Assembly: GCA_964562525.1 (NCBI GenBank)
Contig: CAZLTL010000006.1
Coordinates: 31,187 to 95,186 of the forward strand
Origin: an uncultured bacterium
Lineage (GTDB): Bacteria; Omnitrophota; Omnitrophia; Omnitrophales; Aquincolibacteriaceae
DNA length: 64,000 bases
Reading direction: 5' to 3'
A program made the position numbers and the translations under genes. Below the pieces are notes generated by a model. The model saw only the letters and a program-made list of their open reading frames with translations, ran no database searches and had not been told where the DNA came from. Numbering within the stretch: position 1 is the stretch's first letter; each line of letters begins with the position of its first letter. Shown here in pieces: positions 8,457-26,740 of the stretch.

Positions 8457-9751
8457 ATCCATTTTCGATTGATACACGCACGATTCAATCGGGTGATCTT
8501 TTTATTGCTTTGGATGGAACCCAACAAAAAGGGTATTCGTTTTTGCCCGAAGCTTTCAAAAAGGGCGCCGCTTCAGCTTTATGCGCGGAAAGCTATCGCG
8601 CGCAAGTCTCTCCTGAATGGATTCAGCGGGTGAGGTTTGTTCCGGATCCCGTTTTGGAAATGGCAAATTTAGCGCGGGAGCATCGCAAGCAATTCGATAT
8701 TCCCGTGATCGGGGTTGTCGGTAGCGTGGGTAAAACATCCACCAAGCAGTTTCTGTCCTATTTGCTTTCAAGACATTTTAGAGTTTTAGCCACCACGGGA
8801 AATTTAAATAATCAGCTCGGTCTTCCGATGATGCTGAGCCGACTCAATCCAGAGCACCAAAAGGCTGTTTTGGAAATGGGCGCGGATCATGTGGGAGATC
8901 TTGCTAACTTAGTCAGCATTGCAGCGCCCGACAAGGCTGTTTTGACTCCCATTGCACCCGAACATTTATTGGGGTTTGGTTCTTTAGCGGGAGTTTATGA
9001 CGGAGAACTTGAGATTTTACTTTCACCTCGACTTAAAACAATCGTCACCGTCGCGGGCGACAAGGAGCTTGACCGCCGTTTGAGTGGATGGTCCGGAAAA
9101 GTGATTCGCGTTGGATTTTCCAAAGAAGCGGATGTGGTGATATCTGATGTTTGTATCGAAAACGGAAAGACTCTTTTCAGAGTTCAGGGTCAGCAGGTGA
9201 CTTTACCAACTACGGCATCCTTTTTGGCGCTAAATGCGGGGCTTGCCGCGGCTATGGCAGTTGAGGCGGGACTTCAGTTGTCGGATATTGGCGGAGAATG
9301 GAATCCGGAATTGCCGAAGGGGCGTTATGCCGCGCGTAATATCGCTCGAGATATTACGGTGATTGACGATACATACAACTCAAGTCCCAAAGCTTTTTCC
9401 GCCGCGTTGGACGCGTTTAAAAAAATAAATTTTAAACGAAAATGGATTATTTTTTCTGATATGCTTGAGCTGGGAGCGGAATCGGCGCATTGGCATGATG
9501 TTTTGGCGGAGGATATCGCTCAATCGGGTGTTCACGCCGCTTGGGCTTTCGGCACTGAAGCTAAACGAACGATTCATCGATTAGAAAAGCGGGCCGGCAC
9601 TATCAATAGCCGTTGGTTCCAGAATGCTGAAAGCTTGGCGGAAGAATTGGTGCTGTGCGTTGAACCCGGAGATGGAATTTTGTTTAAGGGGTCGCGCGGT
9701 ATGCGGGTTGAAAAAGTTTTAGAGATTTTAGAGAAAAAGATCGCTGTTTAA
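8453..9751 (+). CDS. murF: UDP-MurNAc-tripeptide--D-Ala-D-Ala ligase
   Basis: Mur ligase P-loop GVVGSVGKTSTK. 4-nt overlap with murE. Order in the dcw cluster. Confidence 0.93.
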   Translation: MNPFSIDTRTIQSGDLFIALDGTQQKGYSFLPEAFKKGAASALCAESYRAQVSPEWIQRVRFVPDPVLEMANLAREHRKQFDIPVIGVVGSVGKTSTKQFLSYLLSRHFRVLATTGNLNNQLGLPMMLSRLNPEHQKAVLEMGADHVGDLANLVSIAAPDKAVLTPIAPEHLLGFGSLAGVYDGELEILLSPRLKTIVTVAGDKELDRRLSGWSGKVIRVGFSKEADVVISDVCIENGKTLFRVQGQQVTLPTTASFLALNAGLAAAMAVEAGLQLSDIGGEWNPELPKGRYAARNIARDITVIDDTYNSSPKAFSAALDAFKKINFKRKWIIFSDMLELGAESAHWHDVLAEDIAQSGVHAAWAFGTEAKRTIHRLEKRAGTINSRWFQNAESLAEELVLCVEPGDGILFKGSRGMRVEKVLEILEKKIAV

Positions 9752-9771: not shown

Positions 9772-10857
9772 ATGCTTTATTTTTTGCATCAATTTGCATC
9801 AGAATCGATTGTTTTTAACCTTTTTCGGTACATTACTTTCCGCGCTGCCGCTGCCGCGGTTTGCGCTTTTCTTTTCAGTTTGCTTTGGGGACCGCGCTTA
9901 ATTCAGGATTTAAAAGCCTTGAAAGCGATTGCTAATAACCAGCGCGAACACGCTGAGTCCATTCATCACCTTTATGCTGATAAGAAAAATATTCCGACCA
10001 TGGGTGGCGTGCTGATTGTGCTGAGTGTTCTGTTTTCTACTTTGTTTTGGGCGAATTTAACCAACCTTTATGTTTGGCTTTTGATCGCGGTTTTGATCGG
10101 ATTCGGCTTTGTAGGGTTTCTCGATGATTGGCTGAAACTGCGGTATCAGAATTCTAAGGGGTTGCATGGTCGGCTTAAACTTCTCGGACAAATTTTGACG
10201 GGGCTTTTAATTGCTTGGGTTTTGTATCACTCCGATACTTTTGGACGCATGCTTTACTTTCCATTTTTAAAGCAGCCGATTTTGAATCTTGGAATTTTGT
10301 TTATTCCTTTCGTGATTTTTGTTTTGGTCGGAACTTCCAACGCGCTCAATTTGACGGATGGTTTGGATGGCTTAGCGATTGGATGCGCGTTTTTTACGGC
10401 ATCGACATTCGCGGTATTAGCTTATGTGACAGGCCGCCAAGATTTTACGGCTTATCTTTCAATACCTTATTTACCGGGCGCGGGTGAAATCACCGTTTTT
10501 TGCGCCGCTTTGGCCGGAGCTTGCGCGGGGTTTCTTTGGTATAACGCTTATCCTTGTCAAATTATGATGGGCGATACTGGCTCCCTTTCGCTGGGCGGCG
10601 TCATCGGTACGGTGGCTGTCCTTTTGAAAAAAGAATTTGTACTTGTGATTGTCGGCGGTATTTTTGTTTGGGAAGCCCTTTCCGTGATTATTCAGGTGAC
10701 GAGCTTTAAGCTGACGGGGAAGCGAGTTTTTTTAATGTCGCCGTTTCATCATCATTTGCAGAAATTGGGATGGCCTGAGAATAAAATTGTAATTCGCTTC
10801 TGGATTATTGCTTTTATGCTCGCCATCGTCGGTCTCGCTACGCTGAAAGTCCGATAA
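9772..10857 (+). CDS. mraY: Phospho-N-acetylmuramoyl-pentapeptide transferase
   Basis: Polytopic membrane protein with NLTDGLDGLA and MGDTGSLSLGG motifs and a C-terminal HHHLQ. Confidence 0.96.
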   Translation: MLYFLHQFASESIVFNLFRYITFRAAAAAVCAFLFSLLWGPRLIQDLKALKAIANNQREHAESIHHLYADKKNIPTMGGVLIVLSVLFSTLFWANLTNLYVWLLIAVLIGFGFVGFLDDWLKLRYQNSKGLHGRLKLLGQILTGLLIAWVLYHSDTFGRMLYFPFLKQPILNLGILFIPFVIFVLVGTSNALNLTDGLDGLAIGCAFFTASTFAVLAYVTGRQDFTAYLSIPYLPGAGEITVFCAALAGACAGFLWYNAYPCQIMMGDTGSLSLGGVIGTVAVLLKKEFVLVIVGGIFVWEALSVIIQVTSFKLTGKRVFLMSPFHHHLQKLGWPENKIVIRFWIIAFMLAIVGLATLKVR

Positions 10858-10861
10858 AAAA

Positions 10862-10977
10862 ATCAGAAATCAGAAATCAAAAATCAGAAATCAAAGCCAT
10901 AACTTAGAATTCAAAGATGTTCGAGCATCTAAATGTATTTAATCTATGGTTCTGAGCTCTGATTTCTAAGCTCTAAA
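10862..10977. repeat. Intergenic heptanucleotide tandem-repeat element with an inverted distal arm (mraY-murD spacer)
   Basis: Five tandem heptamers, ATCAGAA ATCAGAA ATCAAAA ATCAGAA ATCAAAG, at 10862-10896. The distal arm TTCTGAGCTCTGAT TTCTAAGCTCTAAA at 10950-10977 has a reverse complement that again reads ...ATCAGAG CTCAGAA. The imperfect dyad is centred near 10920. Confidence 0.8.
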
Positions 10978-10983
10978 CTTATT

Positions 10984-12237
10984 ATGAATAATCTTCCTCC
11001 GGATATCGGAAAAAATGTGGTCGTTCTTGGTTTGGGTGAAAGCGGCTATCAAAGCGCGCTTGAGCTTCAAAAGCTGGGTTTTGATGTTTTTGCCACGGAT
11101 AAATCCGATACGCAAATTTTAAGAGAACGGGTCGATGCTTTGTCACGGAAAGGCGTTCAAGCGGAATGCGGAAAGCATACTTTTGACCGCGTCCAGTCAG
11201 CTGACTGGGTTTTAATTTCTCCCGGTATTCCGCCGCAATCAGAAATTTATCAGGCGCTTTTAAAATGGAAAAAGCCGGTTTACAGCGAAATTGAAGCAGC
11301 CAGTTGGTTTTGCCCTTCAAAAAATATTGTTGCGGTGACGGGCTCATGCGGAAAAACTACCACCGTGACCCTCATTCAAAGAATTTTAAAAGAAGCCGGC
11401 CGTGATGTGGTGTTATGCGGCAATATCGGCAATCCTTGGATCGGAGAATTGTCCAAAATCAAGCCTGAAACTTGGGTCGTTTTGGAAGTCAGTTCTTTTC
11501 AGCTTAAACATTGCCGCAAATTCAAACCCCATATCGGAGTCTTGCTTAATATTCATGCCAACCATCTTGATTGGCATCCTTCTCTTGAAGACTATGCTCA
11601 TTCAAAGTTGAAAATATTTGAAAATTTAGTCAAGCATGACTGGATGCTGCTTCAACAATCAGATGAAAAGCAATATGGTCCGATTCGTTCTTCCTCGACC
11701 AAGCATTATTTAAACCCGGTTGGGCAGGAGAGTTTGCTTGAAAATGCCGCGCGCCAAGTTGCTGAAATTGCGGATATTTCGTTTTCGGTGGTGGAGCATG
11801 TGTTTCGCAACTTTGAAGGGCTTGAGCATCGGCTTGAAAAGTTTTGGGAAAGTGACGGCGTTCAAGCCGTGAATGATTCCAAGTCCACGACACCCGCTTC
11901 GCTCATTTGGGCTTTAGGGCGTTATCCTGATCAGAGTGTGGTCTTGATTACGGGCGGCAGAGTTAAAACGCCCTCTTTCGTGGAGTGTTTGCCCGCGCTT
12001 AAGGCGAAAGCAAAAAAAATTGTTGTGATCGGTGAAGCACAGCCTATGATGCTTCAAGAGTGGGCCGAGCTGAATCCTCATTCCGCCGAGTCGCTTGCCG
12101 CTGCTTGCAAAACCGCATTGGCTTCTGCCCAAAAAGGGGATACGGTCCTTTTTTCACCCGCTTGCTCCAGCTTCGACATGTTCAAAAGCTACATCGACCG
12201 CGGTAATCAGTTTAAATCCCTCATTCGCCAAAGATAA
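10984..12237 (+). CDS. murD: UDP-MurNAc-L-alanine--D-glutamate ligase
   Basis: N-terminal Rossmann VVVLGLGESG and Mur ligase P-loop VTGSCGKTT. Order in the dcw cluster. Confidence 0.94.
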   Translation: MNNLPPDIGKNVVVLGLGESGYQSALELQKLGFDVFATDKSDTQILRERVDALSRKGVQAECGKHTFDRVQSADWVLISPGIPPQSEIYQALLKWKKPVYSEIEAASWFCPSKNIVAVTGSCGKTTTVTLIQRILKEAGRDVVLCGNIGNPWIGELSKIKPETWVVLEVSSFQLKHCRKFKPHIGVLLNIHANHLDWHPSLEDYAHSKLKIFENLVKHDWMLLQQSDEKQYGPIRSSSTKHYLNPVGQESLLENAARQVAEIADISFSVVEHVFRNFEGLEHRLEKFWESDGVQAVNDSKSTTPASLIWALGRYPDQSVVLITGGRVKTPSFVECLPALKAKAKKIVVIGEAQPMMLQEWAELNPHSAESLAAACKTALASAQKGDTVLFSPACSSFDMFKSYIDRGNQFKSLIRQR

Positions 12238-12434
12238 ACTGTTCCTTACTATTCTCAGACCTGTGATCTAGGATCTGAGCCTTCAATGCTATGATTTGCT
12301 ATAAATGCTAGCTGTTGCTATGCACAATGAATAAAAAGTCATTAAAGATAGCTGTAAATATTGTAATTATTTAATCTTCTAGGTAGCTTTCTATAGGAAG
12401 AACAGACTTTCTAATATGAAAAAAAACTAAATTC

Positions 12435-14013
12435 ATGAATAGAGTCCCGAGAATTTACAAGCTAATCGCAGTGTTTACCGCACTTTGCTTAGAGTGCACG
12501 TCCATCTCCATTCCCACTTTGCATGCTCAAACAGTTCCGCAAAATATTCTTTCTGTAAAAAAACTGAATCCTGAGATTCTTAAATTACCGGAAAAGTTTG
12601 GTGAGGTGGTGGAAAGCCATGCGGGAAATGGAAATGTGATTGTGGTGCAGGACGCGCACGCAATTCCGGATGCGCAGAAGAATATCGCGAATGTGATCAA
12701 GTATATGCAGCAAGAGTATGGCGTGGGAACCGTTGCACTTGAAGGTGCGAGCGGCGATCTCGATCCGCAAATCTTCCGCAGTTTTCCTGATAAGAAGCTG
12801 CTGCGAGAAGTGATGAACGGGTACATGAATTCGGGTGAAATCGCGGGCGGTACGGCTGCTGCGATTTTCGACGAAACCACAACGAAGTATGTCGGGGTAG
12901 AAGATTGGGATGTTTATGAAGAAGGTTTGGGGCTTTATCTCTCCGCGATGGATAAGACCGCAGCCATTGAAGCTCAGCTATCTGCTTTGCGTGAAAAGTT
13001 AAACAAGGAAAAAGAAGCGATTTATCCGCGGGCGTTACTTGAAGTTGATCACGAGATCGAAAAGTTTTATGAAAATGCCGCGCAGCTAACGGAACTGATT
13101 AAAGTGTTGGGAGCGATTCAAGCCCCTAAGGCAGGCAGTGAACTTGAAGCGGTGTGGAAGGAAGTTTCGAAAGCCCACAGTCCGGCGACCGGAGGCGAGA
13201 GAAAGGACATAGAGGTTCGTGCTTTAGCAGCGAAGGTCGAAAAGGTGTTAAAGAGCCCAGGGGCGGTGAAAGCGTTTAACAGCCGTAAACAAGAATGGAT
13301 GACAGGTCAGATCAGCGCAGAAGCCTTTGCACTCAATTTGAAAGAGTTTGCTGATCAAAGCGGACTTAATCTTGAGATGTCCTCCGATTTGCTCGGAATG
13401 GTACGAGACCAGCAAACGTTAAAGGGGCTTGAAGGAACCAAGCTGTTTCGGGACTTAGAGATTTATATCCGTGAAGTGAAGATGCAGTTAACGCAAAGAC
13501 AACAGACGGATGTTTCGGTTAGCGGTGTGAATGCTGAGATGTCAGCGATTCGGGCGTTGGATGAACGGACGAATTCACTGCGTGTATTAACGAAGCTATC
13601 AAAACTTGAGTTGTCCCGCCAAGAGTGGACGAATTTATCGGGGAATTTGGTGTTTGAGGCCTTTGCGGCATTGGGATTAAAACAAGAAGACTTTCTGTTC
13701 CACCTCGCTTTTTATCTGAATGCTGAAGAACGCGACCAAATCTTTTTCGATAATCTCAAAGCTTCGGTCACCGGCCTCCGGCCTTCCGTGATTGTGGCCG
13801 GTGGTTTTCACGCGGAAGGAATCACGAGCCGCCTCAAAGAGGCGGGAATGGGCTATGCGCTTGTGATGCCGAAGATCAATCACATTCCTGAAAATAACTC
13901 GTACAAAGCGCAGATGCGCGGGGAAGTGTCGTGGAAAGATTATTTTGAAGTTGAGAACGGTCGCATCCATCTTTACAAGGCGTTTGTGCGCGCAACGCGC
14001 GACAAGCTTGTCG
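12435..14013 (+). other. ORF A head module: signal peptide plus split TraB/TIKI/ChaN-like domain
   Basis: The signal-like N-terminus is [11 protein letters not shown]...[41 protein letters not shown] and [12 protein letters not shown] resemble the GTxH...VE and GxGHxxG motifs of TraB/GumN/TIKI-fold proteins. The same motifs occur in ORFs B and C. Confidence 0.5.
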
Positions 14014-17000
14014 CAGACCGGAGACCGGAGGTCGGAGGGCAGAGTGACTCAGAGCTCCGGACCCCGGACTTAGGCCTATTAAAAGCTTGGCGCGATCAAA
14101 TCATCCGTGATTTATCGGATATGGGGAAGGTGAATCGCGCGGCCTGGTACACACGGTTTATGGATGAAGTGGTGGACGAAAGCCTGAAGCACACCGATGC
14201 CGACAAGCTGATGATCAAAGTCGACAATTTTATCCGCGGTTTGCGCGGACTTGAGAAGAACAATCAAATTGATCAGGCAAATATAGCGGATTTACTCAAG
14301 GCAAGTATGGCGTCACCTGCTGTTACTTCCCCAGCTGTTGTCGGTACCCCGCTGTCGTTTCCGGTTAATCCCGCAAGTGAAGTTACCATGCAAGAAGCAT
14401 GGGCTAGCGTCCGGGAGTCTCTTCCTGTCGCCATAATTAATGCTTCTCCAGCAGATAATACGCAGTTGCAAGAGCAGGTGACGACGATTCAGGCAAATGA
14501 GCCAATTAATTACAGTGGACTCTCAGCTGAGTTTGATGCAGCAGCTATTAAGCAAACGGCCTTACTTAGCAATTTGGTTCGGCGGGTCTCAAGTATTACC
14601 GATGCAGATTTGGAGTATGAGTGGAATGAAATGGGACGACTTCTTCGTTTGGTGAACGGGATGAAAGGAGAGCCCGACCCGCGAGATCCGGAAGCAATTT
14701 TTGGTTCTGAAGAGCGCAATTTTAAACTACCGGTTGCAATGCGTTCCAAAATTGTGCGCAGTTTGAGTGAGCGAATTCAGTTTAAGTTGGCATGGACGCA
14801 TGCTGTAAATACATTTTTGAACGATGCTGAAGGTGTATCCAAGTTGGCAAGCCGGGCTGCCCCTGCATTAAGAGAGAGTAATGATGAGGGCGCGGCTGTT
14901 GAATTTGAAGTTTTGTCTCCTGGACAATTAACGGACGAAGAATTCTACCGTACTCTTTTGGGCGACAACGGAACCGTGAGCAATGGGTTGATTGGTTCGG
15001 GAAATTTAGTAGCAGCTTTTCGACTTGTTACTCAGAAAATGGCCGTCATGATCAAGGCCGGACCCGAAGGAGTTCCCGGTGGATCAAGAGAGCTAATCAA
15101 GCGCGTTCATGCCTTAGATGGAGTCGCTAAAATGATCCGCGATGAAATTACAACAATGCAGCGCTCCGAAGCGCGGGTTAATGAAAATGCGCCGACAGAT
15201 CAGGCGGCACGGGAGGAAGCGCTTGCAACTGATGAGAAGCTGAAAAGGCTTGATGTCACGACTTTCTTTAAAGAGATCCTTAAATCGGAATGGAAGTGGT
15301 TGTTGGTTGGTTTTGTTTTATTAATTTTGAGCACCATGCTCTACGACTTAGTCGCTGTTACTACGGTCGCGCAATTTTTTTTAAAATCTCTGGGGGTGGG
15401 TGTTGGTTTCTCTTGGGGTGCGATTTTGCTGTTCAATCCTTTGACAGTGCTTACCCATGAATTAGGGCATTTTCTAACCTACCGATTAGTTGGCGGTAAA
15501 TCCGATAACACGTTTGGTTTTAATAGGCACTCCTACTTTTTCAATGCAGATGACATATATAAACTCCCCATATGGAAAGTTCGGATTGTGGATATGGGTG
15601 GGCTTGTGATCAACACAGCTATTTTTGCCACAATTGGTCTTATTTCGTATCTTACTTTGGGCGCGACCCCTGTTCTTATTGCTCTCGCTGGACTTCAACT
15701 TGCTGAATTTATAATGGCTTCCGGTGATTATGAGAAATTCTTCAATGCCAGAGGGTATCAGGCTTTGAGCCTTGATATTGCAAAGTTTCAGGAAGAGATC
15801 AAAAATTACAAACCTGAATTTCATGCAGATGGCACGCGAATATCGGCTGAAGCTGATCGCCCTTTGGATGAGCAAACTCAACGCGAAGCACGGGTGGATA
15901 AAACAGAAGAGGCTTTGAGAAGTGGGGCGTTAACAGTTGAAGGGAAAACGGCGGTTTTTGGCCCTCAGGCGAATAAAGATTTTGCGATAGGAGTAAGCCC
16001 GGAAGTTTCATTTGTGGATTTAGATAAAGCCGATTTTGTAACGAAAGCAGAAACATTTCTCTTTCAATCGCTTTTCTTTGCGGCGGCTTTTTTAAAAATC
16101 CCTGTTGGGAAAGAGCAGAAATTAAATACTTACAAGGAAGTATTTGAAGCGCTTCAAAATGCCAAAGCCGCGGTCAAAAATGCCGGTGGCTTAAGCTTGT
16201 ATGCTGCCCAAGAAAAATTAAAAGAAGCCCAAGCTGAAAAAGATGAGTTTGTGGCTGAAGCTCAAAAGAGAGGTTTTGCCGAGTTTTTGCTTCCGGGTGG
16301 AATTCTAAGCCGCCGCATGGAGATTTTTGTTCCCAATGAAAATCAGCGCGAACGGCTTTTAAAGTATTTAACCTTAACTTTTGTAGGGCAAAGTAAGGAA
16401 TCGCTGCTCTCAGACATTCTGAAAGTGCAGCAAAAATTAGGAGTCACTTTTGATCCGGCGGTTCTTGAGCAGCTTTTAGCCGAGTTTGAATCAAAGCGCA
16501 GCTTCATGTTTCCCGGGGGAGTTTTTGCCGGGAAAATGGATGCAGAGATTCAAGATATTTTTGGTCAATTTATTCAGGTGAAAGTTTTAAGTCAAACCCA
16601 AAGTGTTTCAAGCCCCTCAGTTGGAAATATTCAGCTCAATCTTTCAGGTGCGTTGGTTATGGGGGCAGGCCAATCTGAAGTCGCTGTGGATTGGGATCAA
16701 GTTTTACAGTCAGGAGAATTGGCTCCGGCATGGTCTGAAGCTTTTACTGCACAGCTCAAGAAGGCGCTCATCTTTAAAGATGGGAAACTGCGTGTGTTTA
16801 ATCTCGGGACAGGCGACCCCACCCCGTTTAGCCAGAATCAAGATTACACACATATGGCATTTATTGTGAATGGGAAAATGATTGTTACCGATCCGTCCAT
16901 TCGCAGTATTCGTAATCTTGAGCGTTTGGGATTTTTGGAAAAAGTTGAGGCAATTCATCTGACCCATGTTCACTTTGACCATGTAGGTGGCATTTTAGAT

Positions 17001-20000
17001 ATAGCGCGCCGTAAACTCAAAAAATCGGAATCCTTGCCTAAGCTTAAGCTGGTTATGCCGACTGTTGTTGCGCTGCAACTCGAAAGAACTCTTGCTTATA
17101 ACTTTTCCACGATGGCTGATGATTCAAATTATGATTTCAGCCAGCTTGCGCTGGTCAGCGAACTTTTCGATTATCGGGGACCTGAGAAAATCAATAAAAC
17201 GATAGAAATTTCCCAATTACAAGAATCTGCAGAGTTTAAAGGTGTTCAAATTGAACTTGCACCAACGTTTGGACACCCGATTCCAACCTACGGAGTCAAA
17301 TTGATTACTCAAGAGGGTTTGAAGATAGCCTATTTGTCCGATTCAGTGATGCCAACCCCAACGATTAAAGCAGCGGATGGAAAGGCAATCCCTAATCCTC
17401 GATATTCGGAGTTTGTAAGTTACTATGCGGATTCAGATATATTGATTGCTGAAAATGGCGTGCCGGGCGTGCATATTACTCCCGAGCAGCTTGCCGAGGC
17501 TTTCCCTGAGCATATTAATAACGGAACTCTGTTTACTGTTCATTCGTCGGGTCCCCAAGCTCAAAAAGGGTTAATTCGATTTATGCCGGGCATGATCTTG
17601 TCTCCGCTTCAATCGAATCAAAGAAAGCAAGATGTTCAGCAAAGTGCAGCGACGCTCATTGAGAATGAAGCTATTCGAGATTTTTTAAAGTTAAATTTAG
17701 AGTTAGCCCAAGAACTTTCGAGTATGGGAACGAAGGTTTCATTTTCTGAGGGGGAAGTTCTTTTTCAGCAAGGCAACCCGGTTTATGACTTTGATCATGT
17801 TTATATTTCTTTATCCGGCGAAACAATCGTTGAGGGGCCCGGTGCAAAGCGGCTTCCTTCGATTGGAGCTGGGAGATTAATCGGTGAAATGGCGCTTTTG
17901 ACTAAGGCTTTGACGCAAGAACAATATGACCAGATCATGGTAGCCATCGGGAAGGGTAAGGATACGGCAGCGCTCGATTTTTTTGGGAGAGTGACTTACG
18001 ATTTGGTAATCGAAGGGCAGCCTCCTTATCGCATTGTGAATCCAAGTTTTGACTTAGAAATAGAAGCGAAGGAATTGACGGAGGATCAAAAATCAAAGTT
18101 AAAGCCTGTCTTTGATATTGCAAAGTCAGGTAAACCCATTCCGCGATCGGTAACGGTTCGGGCAGGTGCGGGAGCAACTTATTTAGCGATTCCCAAAGAT
18201 GCTTTTTTACAGTTTTTAACACGAATTGATGCGTCAAAAATCGATTCGAGTCGACAAGCATTCATTTCAGCTATTTACGCACAAATTGGCATCAATCTTG
18301 ATTCTCGAAAAAAGATGAGTGAGTTAGCCACTCCCACTCAGAACGAAACAGATGTGGTAAAGGCATCAGCTGATACGTCAGTTCGCTCCGAAGCGCGCGC
18401 GGATGTTGAATGGTTTAACTGGCGCGTGGACAAACAAGGCAATCCAGTTTCGAATGCCGGGCCTATGAGCGAGCTTGTCACTTTGAATGTTGGTGACAGT
18501 ATCTACTTTGAGGTTCCAAAAAATAAGCCGGGTTTGATCGACTATTACTACCAAGTCGGAATGGAGGGCGAGAATTTTACTTTTCAGCGCTATGAACAAA
18601 GCGGGTCTGTTGCTCAACCTGCTGGTAAGAAAATCGAAATTCCCCGATCACTGCAAACGGATAAGGCCGCTAAAAACAGTGATAACTATCTATTTAGTTT
18701 TCAAGTTAATAATGGAAAACTAATGGTGAGTTCAGGCCAGAAATATGGCTTGCTAAAAAGTAAGGTTAAAAAAGACGGAGCGATTGGTGATAGTAAACCG
18801 AGCGTGCGACGAAAAAAATTTGACGATGCCGCTCGGTCTTATCGTGAAGCATTATCAAAAACAGATTTCCCCAGGTTGAGAAGTTTGTCAGCTGAATTAG
18901 ATGAAAAAATGGACGAAATTTTGGGGGTGGCTACGAATGGTTTATTTCTAATACCGCTTGGTTGGCTTGAAGGACGAATCAAAGAAATGGATGCGGGGTT
19001 GCGTCGAATTGAGAGACATGAGTTATCGGGTCAGGGTAAAGAAGCTTTGGGCTGGGCGATGCAGGTGCTGACGGAACAAATCAATCATTTTCGAAATTCT
19101 GTTGTTGCTGTTAATTTAGAACTCAATCTTTTGACCCAAGGAGAGAAAATTAATTACGATGTTTTTAGTGAGTTGATAGAGAGCTTTCTTCAAACCAACA
19201 GCTTATTTGCATTATCTCAAGAGTTGAATGTTCGCATGCAGTCCTACCCTGAGACAATTGAGTTCAGTTTAAAAAATGTCGATGCCGATTCAAAGATTTC
19301 TGCGCTTAAAAGGCGAATTTTCGATTATGGGCAAGCAACGGCTACTTTGACGCGTCTTGAAGACGCTCGAATATTTTTTGAGAACAGCTGGAAATTGTAT
19401 GATGATCTTGTTGGGTTGATTCAGCAAATGGCATTAGAAATTCAAAGACGTGATGAAACCGAAATGACGATTGAAAGAGGTGCTGAGGCAGCAAAAGAAC
19501 AGCGCAATCAGCTTTGGCGGAGTATTGATTATTATGAAGTGCTAGGTGTTTCTCGAGATGCTTCTCTAGGGGACATAAAAAATGCTTATCGCAGTTTAGT
19601 TCGCGCGGGTAATCATCCGGATAAGGTCGCAGGCGACTCTGCTACGCTAAAAGCAGCTGAAGAGAGATTTAAAGAAATAGGACCGGCATATGAGGTCTTA
19701 AGTAATGAAGTAGACCGCGCTGAATATGACAAAATTCATTTTGCCCGTTCCGAAGCTCGTTCGGTAGACTCAGGGCAAGCGCGGGACTCGTATGAGCGCT
19801 ACAAGCTTTTATCAGGGACTTTGGCAGATTTACCTGACCCTGTATTTGTCAACGATGGGGAAACGATTACTTTGCGGATTCCGCATGATGAAGTCGAAGG
19901 TAGTCAGCCCGAGCTTGATCTTTTGGTTGTATTCAAAAAATTTAATGGGAAGGTGTTTTTTGCCCACCTAGATTCATTTTCAGACTTATCAATGCTTGAT

Positions 20001-23000
20001 GAATATTACCGTTCTGCTGATCCTCTTCAGGAAGGTTCTCGAATCAAATGGGAAGAGGTGAACGAGACTTCAGAAGTTGAGATTATAGGTCGTGAGGAGG
20101 AAATGGATAGTGAGGGTACCAAGGTCAAGATTGTTTTTAGTGAACAGGGTTTTACGATTGCCAATGCCTCGATCTCGGATGTTTATTATTTTGAGGGTAA
20201 GCCCGGTCCGGAAATTATTGCTTCCGCTCTTCGGGATAGTTATCTTTCAAGTGCGAGCACAGGTTTGCCCATAGCCACCGAGCCAATTTTTATTGCCGGG
20301 GAGGATGCAACTGAAATTTTTAACTTGGTCACTGAGTTTATTAATCAGGGTCCGTATGTTCCTGCTGCAGGCGAAACCGCTCTCTACACAAAGGTGAAAC
20401 AACAAATTAGGTTGATTACCGAAAGAACCGGCGAAAAGTATCGATTCAACCCGATGATTCAAATAAATGCCTTAAGTGATACTTATAGAGCTTTAAACAA
20501 TTTTCTCATGAATCGATTTACTGACCTGGAAGGCTTGGAAAAAGGTGTGGTCATTCTCAAGCGAATTCCTAATCTTGAGAAGCTGATCGAAGTTTTAAGA
20601 CATTTAATATCAGCTTACGAGCTGGCTTTTAATCACCTTGAGAATTCAACTATTGAGATCGAGGTGGATGAAAAAGAAAACCATCGGCGTCATGCCTTGC
20701 AAATGCTGGTTGAGTTAAAAAAGATTGTTAATTCATATGATTCAATTCCTCCTGCCGAACGACCGCGGGCTGAAATCCAAGGAGAAGTTCGAATGGCAAG
20801 GTTGCCCAGCCAAAAAAACTTTTCCGAGTTCATTTCTTACAATGGCGATAAAATTCCACTTTGGGCAATTAAAAGAATTTATCTGCCGGATAATAGGGTT
20901 ATTCAATTTGGTGAGATTTCTCAGGCTAATAACGAGGATGGTGTGTATGATCGGGAGGATCGCACGAGAGACGTTAGGAATGCCTTGTCACCATTTCCAG
21001 AGAGTGCGGAGATCGTTTTTGAGCTGCAAGATGGCGTTTTATTAAAGCGAATTTTGGAAGCGGAAGAGTATGAGACGATAACGGCAGTCTATCCGGTTGA
21101 TTTTGACCCCAAAGAATTTAGCAGGCTTCCGCACGGAATAGATTTACCGGAGCGGCGGTTTATAAATGCAGTTAACGTGAACGGGTTTATTACCACCCTT
21201 TATGAGTTGGAATCTCTTTTGCCTGAGACTGGGTTAGCCGGCAGGACAGTGACTTTTTTCTATTCCGCGAATAACCATCTTCAAGCCTTCAAAATCAGTG
21301 ATGAAGCTAAACCTCAGTCTGAGCAATATGTTTACTCTCAGTTTCGAAATTCAAGCAATGTTCAGCCTATGTCCGCGCCTTTTTCTGCTCAGGAAACTCA
21401 AGAAATTGCAAAAAAGGATTTGGTTGACCTATTTGCGGATCTCTTTAATCGCCGTGCGTTGACCTCCGCGCAGAGGGTGGTTCCGTTGAGCGCGCTTATT
21501 CTTCAATTTTTGGCTGTCTCGCTTAACGCTAAGGCTGTTTCAGATTGGGCTCAGGAAGGCAAAGTTCCGCTGTTTGAAGTTGAGTTGGCGAACGAACAAA
21601 CCATTTCATTCAGCGGGCTTAATCCTGCTTTACATCACGATGATGCCGTGCGGATTGAAAGACTGCTATCTCAGATTGACGGGGGATTGGATGCCGCTTC
21701 TTTTCGAATTGTTTTGGCGCCTGCTGGACCGGCTACCCAGTCGAATCAAGCGGGGCAATTTTTTGATCGACCCGGGCGTGGTTTGGATGAGTTCAATGCC
21801 TGGCATAAGTTATCTGATGTCTTGGAACTGTTTTTTCTGTCAGTGGGCGAAACTGGCAAAGACAAGAAATTGGATGCTGCGTCAAAACAAAAACTTTTAG
21901 ATAAACTCGCCGTGCTTGTTGAGGCGATAGCCATGATTCATCCTTCAGTAACAGGAAGTGAAATTTATCATACTTTATATGCTGTCATGGATGCTTCAAT
22001 GTTTAGGGCTAAAAAACTAGATACAGGCAGCAGAATCAATGTTTTGATTAATTTGGCGCGCCAAATCAGAGCCGCTGCGCCTCAAGATCCTCAACAGAGC
22101 ATTTATGTGCAAGGTGAGTTTGAATCAAAATTAAAGACCCCAAACTTAGATCTAAATGAATTGGCAAAAGAGACTGCCCGCTCCGAAGCCCGTTCGGCAG
22201 ACTCAGGGCAAGCGCGGGAGGCTGAGGCGGTTGCGGGAGATGTGTTTGGCTTTTTTAAATCGCCCGCGGATTATTCTGCAGACCAGATAAATACTTTGGC
22301 AGATGAAATTGATACATTGGCTGATAAACAAGGGCTTGATGTTTTTGTGAATCTCTTGCGATCGATAGCTCGAGACTTAGCTGTCGTTAGTGTTCAGGGG
22401 AGCGAAAATATTTTAAGCAAAGAAGCGACAAGTTTTGCCGTGAAACTTTTTGTTGGACGCATGATGGCAGCAAAGCGGCAGTCGACTTTAATAGATGTAA
22501 AAATCGAGAAGCCAACCATTGCTTTAGCATTAAAATTGAATGATGCCCAAAAAGCTTCTCTGGGAGATAAGTTGTCCAGCGAATTGGCTGAAATTCTGGG
22601 TGCGGTTCAGATTGAGGCCAAAGATTTTAAAGAATTAGGTGCGTTTTTTAAGAGCGTAGGGGTTTTAGTGACAACGATTGATCCCGATCTAGCAAACGCA
22701 GTTGTATTAGAAAGTTTTGGTGCGGATTGGAGTGGTTTACCTGCCGTGGGTGTCTTAGAAGAATCGCAGCAATTTGATTCGGAGTTAGAAGGGATGCGTA
22801 TTTATTTGCAGCTTTTGATCGCGGCTTATTTAGCTCGGAGCTTTCCGGATAAGAAAGTAATTTTGACACCCGAGATTGTTGGCGAGATTAATAAGCTGCT
22901 GTTTCAATCTGATGCAGGGCAAGAAGGAATTGTGCAGATACAAAATGGTCAGTTAGTTGTTAAACGAAGCAGTCTGCTGGCATATATTCAAACCTTATTC

Positions 23001-23033
23001 GCGGCGCAATCTGCCGTTGCAGTCGCCGCGTAA
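12435..23033 (+). CDS. Giant modular protein A (3,532 aa): signal peptide, head module, multi-enzyme cargo, tail module
   Basis: Uninterrupted 10.6-kb ORF. Recognisable in-frame motifs occur along its whole length (see the domain sub-features). Its N- and C-terminal modules are paralogous to the ORFs at 41847 and 45438. Confidence 0.85.
13179..13199 (+). repeat. In-frame heptamer triplet AGTCCGG CGACCGG AGGCGAG (encodes SPATGGE)
   Basis: Three 7-nt units (21 nt) inside the ORF A head module. Confidence 0.55.
14015..14070 (+). repeat. In-frame heptamer repeat with inverted arm (AGACCGG AGACCGG AGGTCGG ... CCGGACC CCGGACT)
   Basis: Direct reading of the sequence. The arms match as reverse complements at 11 of 14 positions. 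It encodes [18 protein letters not shown] at the end of the head module. Confidence 0.75.
15291..15755 (+). other. ORF A cargo: M50/S2P-like intramembrane metalloprotease-like module
   Basis: Several hydrophobic helices. HELGH (15456-15470) lies within a predicted TM segment ([18 protein letters not shown]), as in site-2 protease/M50 families. A downstream MASGDYEKF may supply the acidic ligand. Confidence 0.55.
16786..17560 (+). other. ORF A cargo: metallo-beta-lactamase-fold hydrolase domain
   Basis: The HxHxDH signature [10 protein letters not shown] is at 16965-16982. Downstream are His/Asp positions (TFGHP, YLSDS, TVHSS). Confidence 0.75.
17650..18230 (+). other. ORF A cargo: cyclic-nucleotide-binding (CAP_ED-like) domain with a large internal insertion
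   Basis: [30 protein letters not shown]...[12 protein letters not shown], then about 75 aa, then [26 protein letters not shown]. Confidence 0.65.
19527..19742 (+). other. ORF A cargo: J-domain (DnaJ N-terminal domain)
   Basis: [34 protein letters not shown]...[23 protein letters not shown], with the HPD tripeptide at 19614-19622. Confidence 0.85.
22179..23030 (+). other. ORF A tail module (shared with ORFs B and C)
   Basis: It starts at the last RSEAR motif and ends ...[38 protein letters not shown]. Compare B ...EDGIEKAGKNWRITKPSLSRLKDIWQRFQAALQVMQSA* and C ...EQEGVGRYKLTNNSLVLYLETILADIEALLATAQSA*. Confidence 0.6.
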
Positions 23034-23073
23034 TCTTTTCCTTATCAGCACCACAAGTCCCGGGTTGGTTTTG

Positions 23074-23108
23074 GTCGTTGGTCTCTAGTCGTTAGTCTTT
23101 AGTCTGTG
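23074..23108. repeat. Intergenic heptamer tandem array (GTCGTTG GTCTCTA GTCGTTA GTCTTTA GTCTGTG) between ORF A and ftsW
   Basis: Five 7-nt units. The reverse-complement units (TAACGAC, CAACGAC) are the same unit seen in frame at 42670 and 46658. Confidence 0.75.
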
Positions 23109-23122
23109 GTATTATCTGCTCC

Positions 23123-24229
23123 ATGTCACGCGAAGGCCGTCTTCTTTTTTGGGCTTCTTTTATCCTTGTCGGATTTGGTTTGGTCATGGTTTATAGCTCC
23201 AGCGCCGTTGTTGCTGCTGAGCAATACAAACATGCTTCCTATTATCTGACACGCCAGGCTTTATTTGCCGGTTTGGGAGTAATGGCTTTCTTTCTCGTTG
23301 CCTCCATTCCGCTGAGTTTTTATAAAGATCACGCGCGCACAATTATGTTTTGCGCCATCGGACTGACTTTGCTTGTCTTCGTTCCTGGTTTGGGCCGTTC
23401 AGCGGGTGGTGCGCGCCGCTGGATTACTTTGGGCGGATTTAATATTCAGCCCGCTGAGTTTGTAAAGCTGGCTGCTTGTATTTATTTAGCCAACTACTTA
23501 TCCCGAAAAGTAACCGTCGTTCAAAAGGGAACTTTAAGTGTTTATATTCCACCCGCAATTTTGATCGGATTGGTGTGCCTCTTGGTTTTGGTTCAGCCCG
23601 ACTTGGGTTCTTTCGCTTTTCTTGTGATTTTGACCAGTTTGGCATTTTTCGTGACTGGTCTTCCGGTCCGCTTCGTTGCTATTGCTTTGGGTGTTTTGAT
23701 TCCTGCGTTTTATTTCCTGATTGTGCGTGTGCCTTATCGTATGAAGCGCCTCGAAGCCTATCTTAATCCTTGGGATGATCCGCAAGGCAAAGGTTTCCAG
23801 ATTATTCAGTCTTTGCTTTCTTTTGCTTTGGGCGGAACCACCGGTGCGGGGCTTGGGCAGGGAACTCAGAAACTTTATTATCTGCCGTCAGGGCACAATG
23901 ACTTTATCTTTGCTGTAATCGGCGAAGAGTTGGGGCTTTTCGGGACTTGTTTTGTTTTGGCCGCTTTTTTGGTGATTTTTTACGCCGTCGTGAAGATCGC
24001 TTCCCGGCGTCAGCAGATTTTTGAAAAACTTCTCGTTTTGCTTTTAGGCTATTACCTCGTTATTCAAGCGATGATTCATATGATGGTGTGCACCGGTTTA
24101 GTCCCTACAAAAGGCTTGCCGCTTCCTTTCATTAGTTATGGTGGCAGTGCTTTAATTGCGAATATGGTGGCGGTGGGGTTGATTATTGCGTGTGACAGAC
24201 ATACCCGAGTCGAATGGAAACCGCAATAA
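23123..24229 (+). CDS. ftsW: SEDS-family lipid II flippase/peptidoglycan glycosyltransferase
   Basis: Polytopic membrane protein with the FtsW/RodA signature (...GLVPTKGLPLPFISYGGSA). Located in the dcw cluster upstream of murG. Confidence 0.92.
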   Translation: MSREGRLLFWASFILVGFGLVMVYSSSAVVAAEQYKHASYYLTRQALFAGLGVMAFFLVASIPLSFYKDHARTIMFCAIGLTLLVFVPGLGRSAGGARRWITLGGFNIQPAEFVKLAACIYLANYLSRKVTVVQKGTLSVYIPPAILIGLVCLLVLVQPDLGSFAFLVILTSLAFFVTGLPVRFVAIALGVLIPAFYFLIVRVPYRMKRLEAYLNPWDDPQGKGFQIIQSLLSFALGGTTGAGLGQGTQKLYYLPSGHNDFIFAVIGEELGLFGTCFVLAAFLVIFYAVVKIASRRQQIFEKLLVLLLGYYLVIQAMIHMMVCTGLVPTKGLPLPFISYGGSALIANMVAVGLIIACDRHTRVEWKPQ

Positions 24230-24233
24230 CCCG

Positions 24234-25340
24234 ATGAAGACGATTGTTGTTTTTTCTGGTCCGTCGGGGGGGCATTTATTTCCGGCGCAGGCATTTGCGG
24301 AAGTTGCTCATGCGGAATCTGCTGATTTTAAAATTATTTTGGTGACCAGCGTTCGGGCTCGGGGACTTTGCGCAAAATTTCCTGCGGATATTTTTTCTGA
24401 AATTATTTATCTCCCGGAATTCGGCTCGCCGATTGGCTTTTCCTGGGCCGGCTTCAAGGCGCTGCTCAATATTCCCGTTGCGATGGTTCAAAGCTGGATT
24501 TTGCTTTCTCGTTTAAAACCGGATTTGTGCGTTGGCTTTGGCAGTTTCGTTTCGTATTTTGGGATGCTTTTCGCTGCATGGCGGGGAATTCCGACTTTAA
24601 TTCATGAACAAAATCAAATGCCTGGCAAAGCAACGCGCATGCTGCAAGGGTGGGTCAAAACCGTCGCAGTTTCATTTCCTGAAACGCATTTTCGTAAAAA
24701 ACCACACGAAGTGATTGTGACCGGGTTGCCAATTAGGCGTGCAATTCGAGAAAACCGCATTGATTTTGACAAAAAACAAGGGCATCCGTTCACGGTTTTG
24801 GTTTGTGGCGGCTCGCAAGGTTCGGCTTTTTTAAACCGGGCGGTTCTATCCGCATTTTCTGGTTTTTCCGCTGAAGAACGTGCGAAATTTGCCGTTATAC
24901 ATATCACGGGAAATTCGGCTGAAAATTTGGTTCGCGAAACTTACGCGAAGTTAGGGATTTCCGCCGAAGTTTATTCCTTCTTTGAAAAAATGCACGTTTT
25001 GTACAACCGGGCGAATATGGCTGTTTCAAGGGCAGGAGCCAATAGCTCGTTTGAACAGGCTTTGTACGGTATTCCAACGGTGTTCATTCCGTATCCTTTC
25101 GCGGAAGGGCATCAAAATGATAATGCAAAGTACTTTGTTGATCATGGTGCAGCAATCATAGTGCCTCAGGATGAGCAGGCTGGTAAGCAAGTCGGGGCTT
25201 TGATTCAGGCTTGGTCTGAGCGGTCGGCTGAATACCATGAGGCGGTCAAAAAAATGATCTCGGTGAGCTTTGAAAATGGGGACATTCGTCTCTGGAATAT
25301 TGCCAAAAATATGTTAAAACTTAACACATGCAATTCTTAA
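24234..25340 (+). CDS. murG: UDP-GlcNAc:lipid I N-acetylglucosaminyltransferase
   Basis: N-terminal GPSGGHLFPA, a GGSQGS motif and the C-terminal GT28 region. I prefer the ATG at 24234 (MKTIVVFSG...) to the ORF-track start at 24186, which overlaps ftsW. Confidence 0.92.
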   Translation: MKTIVVFSGPSGGHLFPAQAFAEVAHAESADFKIILVTSVRARGLCAKFPADIFSEIIYLPEFGSPIGFSWAGFKALLNIPVAMVQSWILLSRLKPDLCVGFGSFVSYFGMLFAAWRGIPTLIHEQNQMPGKATRMLQGWVKTVAVSFPETHFRKKPHEVIVTGLPIRRAIRENRIDFDKKQGHPFTVLVCGGSQGSAFLNRAVLSAFSGFSAEERAKFAVIHITGNSAENLVRETYAKLGISAEVYSFFEKMHVLYNRANMAVSRAGANSSFEQALYGIPTVFIPYPFAEGHQNDNAKYFVDHGAAIIVPQDEQAGKQVGALIQAWSERSAEYHEAVKKMISVSFENGDIRLWNIAKNMLKLNTCNS

Positions 25341-26740
25341 ATTCGGAATATCAAAATTTGTTCGGAAAAGTCCGCTCAGTTTACCTTGTCGGTATTGGCG
25401 GAGCGGGTATGAGCGGGTTAGCACGCATCTTAAAAACACAGGGTTTTGATGTTTCAGGCTCTGACCGCAAAGCGACTCCCATTCTTGAGCAATTACAGGC
25501 CGAAGGCATTCAGATTCATGTCGGTCAGCAATCTCCTGGATTTACGCAAACAGACTTGGTGATTTATTCGACGGCCATTGCTCCCGACCATATTGAAATG
25601 AAGCAGGCCCGTGAAAAGGGAATTCGCACCTGTCATCGCGCTGAAGCTTTAGCCGCAGTGTTCAACCAAGCTGAAACGTCGATTGCGATTACCGGAACGC
25701 ATGGCAAAACAACCACTTCCGCGATGGTTTCATTTTTACTCGCCAAGCTGGGTAAGTCCCCAACGAGTTTTGTCGGCAGTGAAATGCTGAATTTTGGAAG
25801 CAATGTTTTATCCGGTTCCGCGAATAATTATTTTGTTGCGGAAGTGGATGAAAGCGATCGGACGCATGAGCTTTTTTCTCCGAATTACGCGATTATTACC
25901 AATCTGGAAATGGATCACCACGAGAGTTATGAATCGATGGAAGTGCTTGGCGATTCATTCCGAAAATTTTTAAGCCGTTTTCATTTTCCGGGGCTCGCAG
26001 TGCATTGCGGTGATGACGCTTTTCTGCATCAGGTGGTTAAAAGCTCCGGTAAACCCAGCCTGAGTTACGGCCTTCAGCCGCAAAATGATTTTTCGGCCCG
26101 TAATATTGAGTTTCGCTCTTTCGGATCCGAGTTTGACTGGTATGAGGGAGATTTCTTTCTGACGCGTGTTCGGCTTTCAATACCGGGCGTTCATAATATT
26201 TATAACTCGATGGGTGCGCTGATTGTGTGCCTACAGCTGGGATTTGATCTCGAAGCTTTAAAAGCCGCCATTTTTGAATTCCGCGGAACTCGCCGCCGCC
26301 TCGAAATAAAATATGACTGTGATGCGATGACGGTTGTGGATGATTATGCGCATCACCCGACGGAAATTACGGCTTCATTGCGGGCGCTTCAGTCTTCGGG
26401 CCGGAAAGTTTTGACAGTGTTTCAGCCGCATCGTTATTCGCGTGTTCGGCATCTCTTTAAAGAATTTGCCGGCGCTTTGGGTGAAGCGCAGGAAGTGTAT
26501 CTGACTGATATTTATGCCGCGGGCGAGCAGAATCCTGATAACGTCAGTATTCAAATGATTTACGAAGAAGCGCAGAAACACGGCATTCATCGAATTACGA
26601 TGGTGAAAAAACAAGATTTGGTTCCAACCTTGCTTCGGCGGCGTGTTGCCAACGAAGTGATTGCTTTTTTAGGCGCGGGAGATATTGGAGAAGTAGCGGA
26701 TGAATTTGTCAGCAGTTACCGATCTCAAAATCAGGCGTAA
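25328..26740 (+). CDS. murC: UDP-N-acetylmuramate--L-alanine ligase
   Basis: VGIGGAGMSGLARIL...VSGSD and P-loop GTHGKTTTS. Confidence 0.95.
   Translation: MQFLNSEYQNLFGKVRSVYLVGIGGAGMSGLARILKTQGFDVSGSDRKATPILEQLQAEGIQIHVGQQSPGFTQTDLVIYSTAIAPDHIEMKQAREKGIRTCHRAEALAAVFNQAETSIAITGTHGKTTTSAMVSFLLAKLGKSPTSFVGSEMLNFGSNVLSGSANNYFVAEVDESDRTHELFSPNYAIITNLEMDHHESYESMEVLGDSFRKFLSRFHFPGLAVHCGDDAFLHQVVKSSGKPSLSYGLQPQNDFSARNIEFRSFGSEFDWYEGDFFLTRVRLSIPGVHNIYNSMGALIVCLQLGFDLEALKAAIFEFRGTRRRLEIKYDCDAMTVVDDYAHHPTEITASLRALQSSGRKVLTVFQPHRYSRVRHLFKEFAGALGEAQEVYLTDIYAAGEQNPDNVSIQMIYEEAQKHGIHRITMVKKQDLVPTLLRRRVANEVIAFLGAGDIGEVADEFVSSYRSQNQA

Follow-up and report, generated by a model that had tools for sequence, protein, structure and literature searches.

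The 64,000-nucleotide (nt) stretch of DNA analysed here (the window; contig CAZLTL010000006.1 of assembly GCA_964562525.1, positions 31,187 to 95,186, from an uncultured bacterium of the Omnitrophota) contains a cluster of division and cell wall (dcw) genes in which an uninterrupted open reading frame (ORF) of 3,532 amino acids (aa), starting with ATG, lies between murD and ftsW (12435-23033, plus strand). Sequence comparison places this giant ORF in a large paralogous family of modular giants, dispersed among housekeeping genes and sharing an N-terminal domain with a QDAH motif (N-domain). The explanation that best covers the observations as a whole, and which we consider probable, is that a family member became lodged in the murD-ftsW spacer and that its modules, delimited by a short peptide motif, have been rebuilt by recombination. 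All window positions given below refer to the plus strand.

The N-domain occupies positions 12582-14354 (aa ~50-640) and is 20-78% identical to its counterparts in 19 database proteins, at 80 metagenomic loci and in two further ORFs of the window. The 19 protein-database matches all came from Omnitrophota or unnamed bacteria, and the metagenomic loci with the domain number at least 441, from which 80 were fetched for analysis. Invariant in the domain are QDAH (residues 72-75), E103 and E156, together with a near-invariant R433 and a family-wide GGFH (around residue 458), set in an alpha/beta core with a helical insert of ~290 aa (~158-444). ORFs starting with it were nearly all giant (2,000 aa to over 4,000 aa), a good number of them extending beyond the 10-kb flank. 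Of the 80 loci, 78 lay away from dcw genes and only 1 had dcw neighbours, and members were found after an rRNA methylase, uvrC, gcv/UvrD and further housekeeping genes. All-against-all clustering of neighbouring genes yielded no conserved partner gene (protease or transporter), only one lineage-specific synteny of 8 loci, and no relatives of the family were found among 2.9 million viral contigs. The two paralogues within the window stand in tandem after glycine-cleavage genes, a lipoate ligase and UvrD; the first (41847-45272; 1,141 aa) has the N-domain, one RSEVR pentapeptide and a tail ending in ...MQSA, and the second (45438-59639; 4,733 aa) has the N-domain, six R-S-E-x-R pentapeptides and a tail ending in ...AQSA. 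A gene for an M48 (HtpX/Ste24-like) membrane metalloprotease is located 2.3 kb 3' of the 4,733-aa paralogue (61904-63028), with no evidence of a link to the family.

The pentapeptide, defined as R-[SA]-E-[VLAMTI]-R (R-[SA]-E-Φ-R), recurs along the family ORFs. RSEVR was their commonest pentamer, observed 67 times against 0.29 expected, and outranked every pentamer of the conserved domain. In total 321 motifs were counted in 210,000 aa of family ORFs, and 45 of 50 long family ORFs carried the generalised motif two or more times; outside the family, nearly all copies lay in pieces of further giant ORFs. It occurred 0 times inside the N-domain, and the first copy often followed just after that domain. 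Across all six frames of the window, it was exclusive to the three family ORFs (4 + 1 + 6 copies). The four copies of the giant ORF, all RSEAR, lie at aa 910-914 (15162-15176), 1984-1988 (18384-18398), 2438-2442 and 3249-3253, the last two within 45-nt direct repeats described below, and are joined by a degenerate QREAR at aa 1149-1153 (15879-15893). At the position of QREAR, a canonical motif or near variant was found in P0022, P0024 and P0027 by alignment and in P0021 by sequence reading. All six Arg and both Glu codons were in use within the motif, the flanks were unconserved and the three charged positions were invariant. The use of all six Arg codons together with the unconserved flanks indicates that selection acts on the peptide, and a purely nucleotide-level signal was rejected as the main explanation given that all six Arg and both Glu codons occur.

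Motif copies fall close to domain boundaries. The J-domain of the giant protein ends 5 aa before the RSEAR at aa 2438, and a module combining a metallo-beta-lactamase (MBL) fold with a cyclic-nucleotide (cNMP)-binding domain, which starts 18 aa after QREAR, recurs at varied positions both in giants (2,285-7,620 aa) and in other proteins (867-1,699 aa), with the motif 10-20 aa upstream of it in several unrelated giants. The largest giant with this module, P0023 (7,620 aa), has no QDAH domain and no R-x-E-x-R, but 19 copies of [GA]-A-R-[LI]-[AS], and ends in ...AARLSRQADIAA; it follows the same general grammar in another linker dialect.

Complete family ORFs also shared a tail of ~60 aa ending in [AS]-A-COOH. 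Among 48 stop-terminated ORFs of at least 1,000 aa, 32 ended in AA or SA, several of them not among the ORFs that defined the tail, while AA ended ~1% of small ORFs. The tail hidden Markov model (HMM) matched the giant protein with E = 1.4e-12, a value to be read with the giant sequence itself in the training set. In about one third of the tails, the motif stood 9-11 residues from the end (e.g. ...YRSEARIKAAA). At two loci (L004, 10001-22613; L005, 10001-15368), the N-domain formed a separate ORF (870 and 562 aa, respectively) before or overlapping a motif-rich ORF, which in L004 spans at least 3,378 aa with 12 motifs; unless these result from frameshifts, head and cargo are separable.

Pfam leaves ~70% of the giant protein unmatched. 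Its N-terminus is a hydrophobic helix (12435-12530) found in a hydropathy scan, modelled by AlphaFold2 as a helix over residues 6-22 and present in family members, which may serve as a signal peptide or signal anchor. The N-domain is followed, after the first motif, by a polytopic membrane segment detected by hydropathy (15282-15734; aa ~950-1100), which contains HELGH and is a putative zincin of the DUF3267/M50-like type, both Pfam matches (DUF3267, E = 6e-4; Peptidase_M50, E = 0.022) being under the curated cut-off. The MBL-cNMP module (15933-18356; aa 1167-1974) was matched by the Pfam families Lactamase_B_2, Lactamase_B, Apyc1 and cNMP_binding. It combines an MBL fold at aa 1479-1644, with the metal-binding HVHFDH (HxHxDH), and a cNMP-binding domain at aa ~1768-1827, and is probably an enzyme-type module regulated by cNMP. 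The isolated MBL segment scored over the cut-offs for Lactamase_B_2 (32.9 bits) and Lactamase_B (29.5 bits), and membership of Apyc1 (PF23023) was not supported, the match reaching 23.8 bits against a 50-bit cut-off and covering profile positions 19-92 of 250 only. A defence system was considered and rejected, as PADLOC gave just generic cNMP-sensor matches to Pycsar effectors. Between the second and third motifs lies a J-domain with HPD (19527-19730; aa 2365-2432; Pfam DnaJ PF00226, 63.4 bits against a cut-off of 27.8, E = 2e-17; ...RAGNHPDKV...), and between the third and fourth a cassette without recognisable domains (19761-22178; aa 2443-3248). The C-terminal module (22194-23030; aa 3254-3532) ends in ...AVAVAA-COOH, its last ~65 aa being the family tail according to C-terminal alignment and HMM. 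Running Pfam on ten sub-segments added only the weak DUF3267/M50 matches. The domains found are thus of nucleotide-signalling and chaperone types, and in relatives the cargo included SMODS-associated NUDIX, HD, RelA/SpoT and HAD domains, with further J-domains 3' of the N-domain in L050, L073, L081 and L083.

A MurD scan of species-representative genomes returned two relatives, both Candidatus Omnitrophota. In GFS_12873 (L003; MurD 77%), a gap of 107 nt separates murD from ftsW and there is no giant gene between them, whereas in UBA2337 (L002, identical to L008, ERZ761609 NODE-100; MurD 89%) the ORF next to murD is a giant of at least 3,963 aa. The SRR22388275 contig (L088; 36.6 kb) carries murF, mraY and murD, then an ORF of 3,501 aa, and then ftsW, murG, murC, murB, ddl, ftsQ, ftsA and genes for MlaC and MMPL. 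The contig L009 (ERZ761602 NODE-10211) begins just 5' of a giant ORF and does not cover murD; this ORF probably sits at the same murD-ftsW position. By gene order, the giant gene is best described as resident in one small clade, made up of this genome, UBA2337 and the SRR22388275 genome, and as absent from the next relative.

The alleles at this position are mosaics. Their N-domains are 72-81% identical, but the cargo differs: the window and UBA2337 giants are unrelated beyond aa ~646, the UBA2337 allele having zero Pfam matches, and the giant of L009 has in common with that of the window only a 42%-identical module, corresponding to the second half of the cassette, which starts 7 aa after an RSEMR in L009. 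In the region of L009 homologous, in the same frame, to aa 2783-3239 of the window giant, an in-frame TAG was observed (at ~8093; coverage ~5x), which could be a sequencing error, a pseudogene or recoding.

The comparison between the window and L088 was the most informative. The housekeeping flanks are 86% identical at the nucleotide level over 12 kb, and MraY, MurD and FtsW are 98.9%, 91.1% and 98.6% identical in aa sequence, respectively, while the identity falls to 72% for the N-domain, 50% for the MBL-cNMP module and 41% for the C-terminal module. Within this divergent interior, a block of 2.4 kb (19746-22219) is 98.3% identical in nucleotide and 97.4% in aa sequence. A repeat search showed the block to be bounded exactly by 45-nt direct repeats (19742-19786 and 22175-22219, 93% identical to each other) encoding ARSEARS(V/A)DSGQAR, and thus the third and fourth linker motifs. 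The cassette encoded between them (aa 2443-3249) had no match in a database of 5.8 billion proteins. As read from these identities, the block constitutes direct evidence of a recent cassette exchange between lineages, and outside it the giant interior appears to have diverged far faster than the adjoining essential genes. The locus would accordingly have been rebuilt module by module through recombination between alleles, with the two ends conserved.

The placement of the motif raises the question of its role. One possibility, which we hold to be plausible though somewhat short of probable, is that R-S-E-x-R is a processing site at which a polyprotein precursor of ~390 kDa is cut. The protein would then comprise a signal anchor, the N-domain, the zincin-like segment, the MBL + cNMP module, the J-domain and two modules of unknown fold, with R-S-E-A-R between them and an Ala-Ala tail. 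Processing is suggested by the invariant charged positions, the free flanks, the placement at domain boundaries, the frequency of one site per ~620 aa and the near-exclusive association with the N-domain, P0023, a giant lacking that domain, being devoid of R-x-E-x-R. The cutter could be the hydrolase-like N-terminal domain or a protease encoded elsewhere, and the small-residue C-terminus might act as a handle for a tail-recognising protease, an unfoldase or an exporter. Tail-specific proteases and ClpX prefer small-residue C-termini, which the Ala-Ala/Ser-Ala tail resembles. A search of the literature for the pentapeptide, or for Omnitrophota with 'polyprotein', found nothing relevant.

Alternatively, the giant may never be cut and act as one membrane-anchored multi-enzyme scaffold, the motifs being structural linkers or recombination junctions at the DNA level. 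The motif-containing 45-nt repeats that bound the exchanged cassette and the biased codon choice at the motif are in line with this, as is the literature, which describes Omnitrophota giants as multi-enzyme proteins anchored in the inner membrane and reports no cleavage sites. However, homologous recombination needs more than 15 nt with variable third positions, every one of the six Arg codons occurs, and allele breakpoints do not always coincide with the motif (e.g. aa ~646 and ~800). Three invariant charged positions with free flanks would also be unusual for a passive linker, and on balance we regard an uncut scaffold as rather unlikely.

How the giant gene came to lie between murD and ftsW can be read from the spacers. 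In L003, the 107-nt murD-ftsW spacer contains, in this order, an inverted repeat with 12 perfectly matching bp (GATCCCGGATCT/AGATCCGGGATC), TTTT, a TTCTYGG heptamer array and TATAAT 7 nt before the ftsW ATG, and a terminator scan of it returned 3 terminator-like sites against 0.6 expected. In the window, the giant ORF is flanked by an upstream spacer of 197 nt (12238-12434, 31% GC) and a downstream spacer of 89 nt (23034-23122, 46% GC). The former contains a left remnant of the ancestral hairpin (12254-12279), in which GATCTAGGATCT at 12265-12276 aligns to GATCCCGGATCTAGGATCTCCAGATCCGGGATC of the L003 spacer; this left arm is also retained in L088 and UBA2337. The latter contains the right remnant (23058-23122), composed of TCCCGGGTTGGTTTTGG, a heptamer array (23070-23105; period 7, 5.1 copies by Tandem Repeats Finder) and TATTAT (23110-23115) 7 nt before the ftsW ATG. 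These elements (TCCCGGG..TTTTGG, the heptamer array and TATTAT), in which the second arm of the L003 hairpin survives, align to the L003 spacer and precede an identical ftsW start, and 84 of the 89 nt of this spacer are identical in L088. The alignments place the giant gene, together with the 5' region belonging to it, inside the ancestral spacer, the halves of which still flank the gene. The heptamer arrays were also considered as insertion scars, a possibility that was rejected as the same elements occur in L003, a genome without the giant gene.

The conserved 5' region of the giant gene (12355-12434) contains TTTCTAATATG and an A-run and may be a promoter or a short leader. Over the ~80 nt that directly precede its ATG, three alleles with N-terminal coding sequences only 72-75% identical hardly differ, which suggests a regulatory region specific to the giant gene; a sigma-70 consensus match was not found on the plus strand of 12355-12434. 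TATAAT-like boxes without a Shine-Dalgarno sequence were observed 7 nt before the start of ftsW (23110-23122), ~19 nt before that of the giant gene (12405-12434) and in L003 (6951-6963), a hint that mRNAs of the lineage may have very short leaders or none.

These comparisons also bear on the claims of an earlier note on this DNA, which had described a giant gene at the murD/ftsW junction, flanked by spacers and heptamer elements (placed at 23074-23108 and 10862-10977), and had named two findings that would speak against an insertion, a homologue of the same composition at this position in related genomes and a mis-join. The description proved accurate: the ORF is real, both junctions are found in an independent assembly, and the spacer lengths and Tandem Repeats Finder arrays agree with it. 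The proposed synteny comparison showed murD and ftsW to be contiguous in L003, so that the giant gene interrupts the junction. A recent or private insertion, on the other hand, is contradicted by the homologues at the same spot in UBA2337 and L088 and by a composition near that of the host. The relative synonymous codon usage (RSCU) of the giant ORF correlates with that of the dcw genes at 0.83, the same as for the two other paralogues of the window, and its G+C content at third codon positions (GC3) is 0.42, against 0.44-0.50 for the dcw genes and similar to the two other giant ORFs. A mis-join does not hold up either, as the junctions recur in three independent assemblies: that between murD and the giant gene has 100% identity in an independent Logan contig (SRR13355622) and is also present in UBA2337/ERZ761609 NODE-100, and both junctions are present in L088.

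It is extremely improbable that the region is a recent mobile element, a phage-derived island or an assembly artefact. Such an origin could draw on the GC3 of the cargo modules (0.36-0.40), which is under that of the dcw genes, and on a marginal similarity of 14 nt between 12235-12248 (TAAACTGTTCCTTA) and 23031-23044 (TAATCTTTTCCTTA), which start at the stop codons of murD and the giant gene, respectively. This similarity (p ~0.05 against shuffles) was the only candidate for a target-site duplication, which was rejected; it may be a trace of insertion or be due to chance. Yet the window contains no integrase, transposase or tRNA, the viral contigs contain no relatives, the codon usage equals that of resident paralogues, and the junctions recur between assemblies, so that this origin is largely refuted. 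Rfam and ARAGORN likewise found nothing in the window.

The earlier note had offered two readings of the locus: that the giant gene is co-transcribed with the cell-wall and division genes and linked in function to the envelope, or that it splits the cluster into two transcription units. A role in cell-wall synthesis or division would be in keeping with the shared strand, the lack of a terminator consensus in either spacer, the retention of the position in three or four related genomes, and the N-terminal signal anchor and polytopic membrane segment. It is nevertheless very unlikely, as the family is dispersed, with nearly all loci away from dcw genes, the cargo at the locus varies between alleles, Pfam found no peptidoglycan-related domain in the giant ORF, its recognised domains being of nucleotide-signalling and chaperone types, and the close relative L003 divides without the giant gene. 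In addition, a conserved element has been retained upstream of ftsW, and terminator-like hairpins occur in the ancestral spacer. The dispersal of the family and the allele-variable cargo indicate instead that the dcw position is incidental and uninformative on function. Two transcription units are the more likely of the two options, given the boundary hairpin and T-run in L003 and the retained upstream element of ftsW, although the boundary probably predates the insertion rather than resulting from it. Counts of sigma-70 promoters and intrinsic terminators in both window spacers were at or below those in shuffled sequence.

The proposed course of events is therefore that a family member with its own 5' region entered the hairpin-bearing murD-ftsW spacer in an ancestor of the small clade, where the insertion was probably tolerated because the spacer already resembled a transcription boundary, and that its interior was subsequently exchanged by cassettes. 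Several points weigh against parts of this proposal. The direction of the event, insertion here rather than deletion in L003, follows from parsimony with one outgroup genome, and the lack of a promoter or terminator consensus in either spacer makes read-through from murD through the giant gene to ftsW possible. With regard to processing, cleavage at the motif is a prediction from sequence, and the fold assignment of the N-domain is modest. Some N-domain proteins (P0031, L038 and L084) have few motifs, and the codon bias of the motif (CGY-TCC-GAA-GTG-CGG), together with the longer DNA repeats at one cassette, makes a role at the DNA level possible. Moreover, a Sec-exported N-domain and cytoplasmic-type J and cNMP modules beyond the polytopic segment would not be on the same side, so that one protease acting in cis could not reach all sites.

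The surrounding dcw genes are collinear on one strand from murE to ftsA, each identified by an NCBIfam or Pfam match, and the giant ORF is the sole interruption. Upstream of it are murE (6999-8456; NCBIfam equivalog, 500 bits), murF (8453-9751; NCBIfam equivalog), mraY (9772-10857; NCBIfam equivalog, 404 bits) and murD (10984-12237; TIGR01087, 346.6 bits). Downstream are ftsW (23123-24229; TIGR02614, 396.4 bits), murG (24186-25340), murC (25328-26740), murB (26700-27611) and ddl (27532-28542), the last four all NCBIfam equivalogs, followed by an ftsQ-like gene with an FtsQ-type POTRA domain (28587-29429) and ftsA (29401-30645). The gene order given in the earlier note was thus borne out, as was its description of tight packing: adjacent dcw genes either overlap or have 20 nt between them, with the exception of the 126-nt spacer between mraY and murD. 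Its wording of an otherwise canonical cluster applies to the stretch from murE to ftsA only, as within the window mraZ, rsmH, ftsL and ftsI are missing upstream of murE and ftsZ after ftsA. The region 5' of murE (1-7002) encodes instead a two-component system, an AAA ATPase, an HD-GYP-type response regulator (4708-6309) and a matchless ORF of 156 aa, and genes for MlaC and an MMPL transporter (30668-33684) follow ftsA at the expected place of ftsZ. In L003, murE and murF are fused into a single ORF of 949 aa (1506-4355), whereas in the window they are separate with a 4-nt overlap.

The AT-rich spacer between mraY and murD (10858-10983) contains an AAATCAG array (10860-10893; 4.9 copies by Tandem Repeats Finder) with an inverted partner and forms a long hairpin between the two (RNA fold z = -3.66), a fold that none of 200 shuffled sequences equalled. 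Its sequence is kept in L003, which has no giant gene, and replaced in UBA2337; it is a native structured spacer outside the insertion.

The main interest of the locus lies in a widespread giant family with sequence-predictable module boundaries, more than in the dcw position. The motif allows giant ORFs, of which there are hundreds, to be divided into modules for structure prediction, and the locus illustrates that giant genes evolve through cassette exchange. It also indicates that a highly conserved junction such as murD-ftsW can host a hypervariable gene where the junction is already a transcription boundary. A further and more speculative reading, to which we assign a low likelihood, is that the QDAH giants are effector polyproteins that process themselves, in Omnitrophota living as episymbionts or predators. 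The membrane-tethered N-domain or a dedicated protease would cut the precursor at R-S-E-x-R, the resulting strain-specific cocktail (nucleotide-signalling enzymes, J-domain co-chaperones and unknown modules) would act on or in the host, the Ala-Ala end would serve as an export handle and the exchange of cassettes would reflect an arms race. If true, this would constitute a new bacterial polyprotein system with cleavage sites predictable from sequence in hundreds of giant genes.

Among known folds, the N-domain probably belongs to the Tiki/TraB/ChaN/EreA superfamily, to which its model shows weak similarity. The best structural matches were to ChaN (2g5g, 7.8), the EreA-like proteins BcR135 (2rad, 7.6) and BcR136 (2qgm, 7.3), HopBA1 (5t09, 7.1), TraB (8bqs, 6.7) and EreC (6xcq, 6.4). 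The assignment is only probable because Foldseek and sequence profiles lend no support: Foldseek against the PDB returned mostly helical bundles, the N-domain profile found nothing among PDB sequences, and the Pfam families TraB, ChaN and Erythro_esteras gave no match. Members of the superfamily have paired GxxH motifs with a conserved Glu and Arg, and a comparable His...Glu...Arg...GxxH pattern appears to be conserved in the N-domain family, which is also predicted to be tethered to the membrane by an N-terminal helix as in Tiki and PrgY. In contrast to the superfamily, QDAH takes the place of GxxH as the first motif, a helical insert of ~290 aa is present and there is no sequence-profile match.

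At the level of the whole protein, the closest described class is that of the multi-enzyme giants of Omnitrophota (West-Roberts et al. 2023, bioRxiv 10.1101/2023.11.21.568195; Nielsen & Lui 2026, bioRxiv 10.64898/2026.06.07.730766). The likeness includes the phylum, very long ORFs, a signal peptide or transmembrane (TM) helices, mostly unique sequences and unrelated enzyme domains (Nudix, HAD, HD, kinases, methyltransferases) that tile one polypeptide. Distinct, non-repeated domains together with TM or signal features, which mark a protein as multi-enzyme, are also found here (DUF3267-like, MBL, cNMP-binding and DnaJ domains, the N-terminal helix and the polytopic segment). The giants of the cited studies are however at least 10,000-30,000 aa long and flanked by type II secretion system (T2SS)/pilus and glycoside hydrolase genes, whereas the window giant is flanked by housekeeping genes and, at 3,532 aa, is below the 10,000-aa length criterion of class 1. 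In both preprints, term searches and the sections read yielded no mention of a QDAH N-domain, an inter-module pentapeptide, an Ala-Ala tail or a dcw location; the cassette-swapping QDAH giant family is large and undescribed. For the Omnitrophota giants, post-translational cleavage is suspected and the cleavage points are stated to be unknown (West-Roberts et al. 2023, bioRxiv 10.1101/2023.11.21.568195). With a pentapeptide at the boundaries, a candidate N-terminal hydrolase domain and a conserved Ala-Ala end, the question of how such proteins are cut becomes testable.

Two systems outside this class share the arrangement of conserved and exchangeable parts. Polymorphic toxin loci (Rhs, CDI and MuF-type) have a conserved N-terminal part, replaceable cargo with a single C-terminal toxin, and an immunity gene. 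The giant is similar in its conserved head, its mosaic alleles and a cargo that outpaces the flanking genes, but it has no adjacent immunity gene, ftsW being directly next, carries several cargo modules and a conserved tail, and lacks both Rhs/YD and PT-type pre-toxin domains. In the MARTX toxins of Vibrio and related bacteria, the ends are conserved and the effector modules variable, being reshuffled between strains and released by cleavage at short inter-domain sites. Pfam searches of the giant's segments with E up to 1 found no domain for the CPD cysteine protease or the glycine-rich A/B/C repeats, no RTX or type I secretion system (T1SS) genes are present in the window, and the proposed site is R-S-E-x-R rather than the Leu-X of MARTX. 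With their conserved ends and swappable modules, the MARTX toxins are nonetheless the nearest functional analogue, a working likeness rather than a membership, in which the cleavage between modules is, for the giant, a prediction only.

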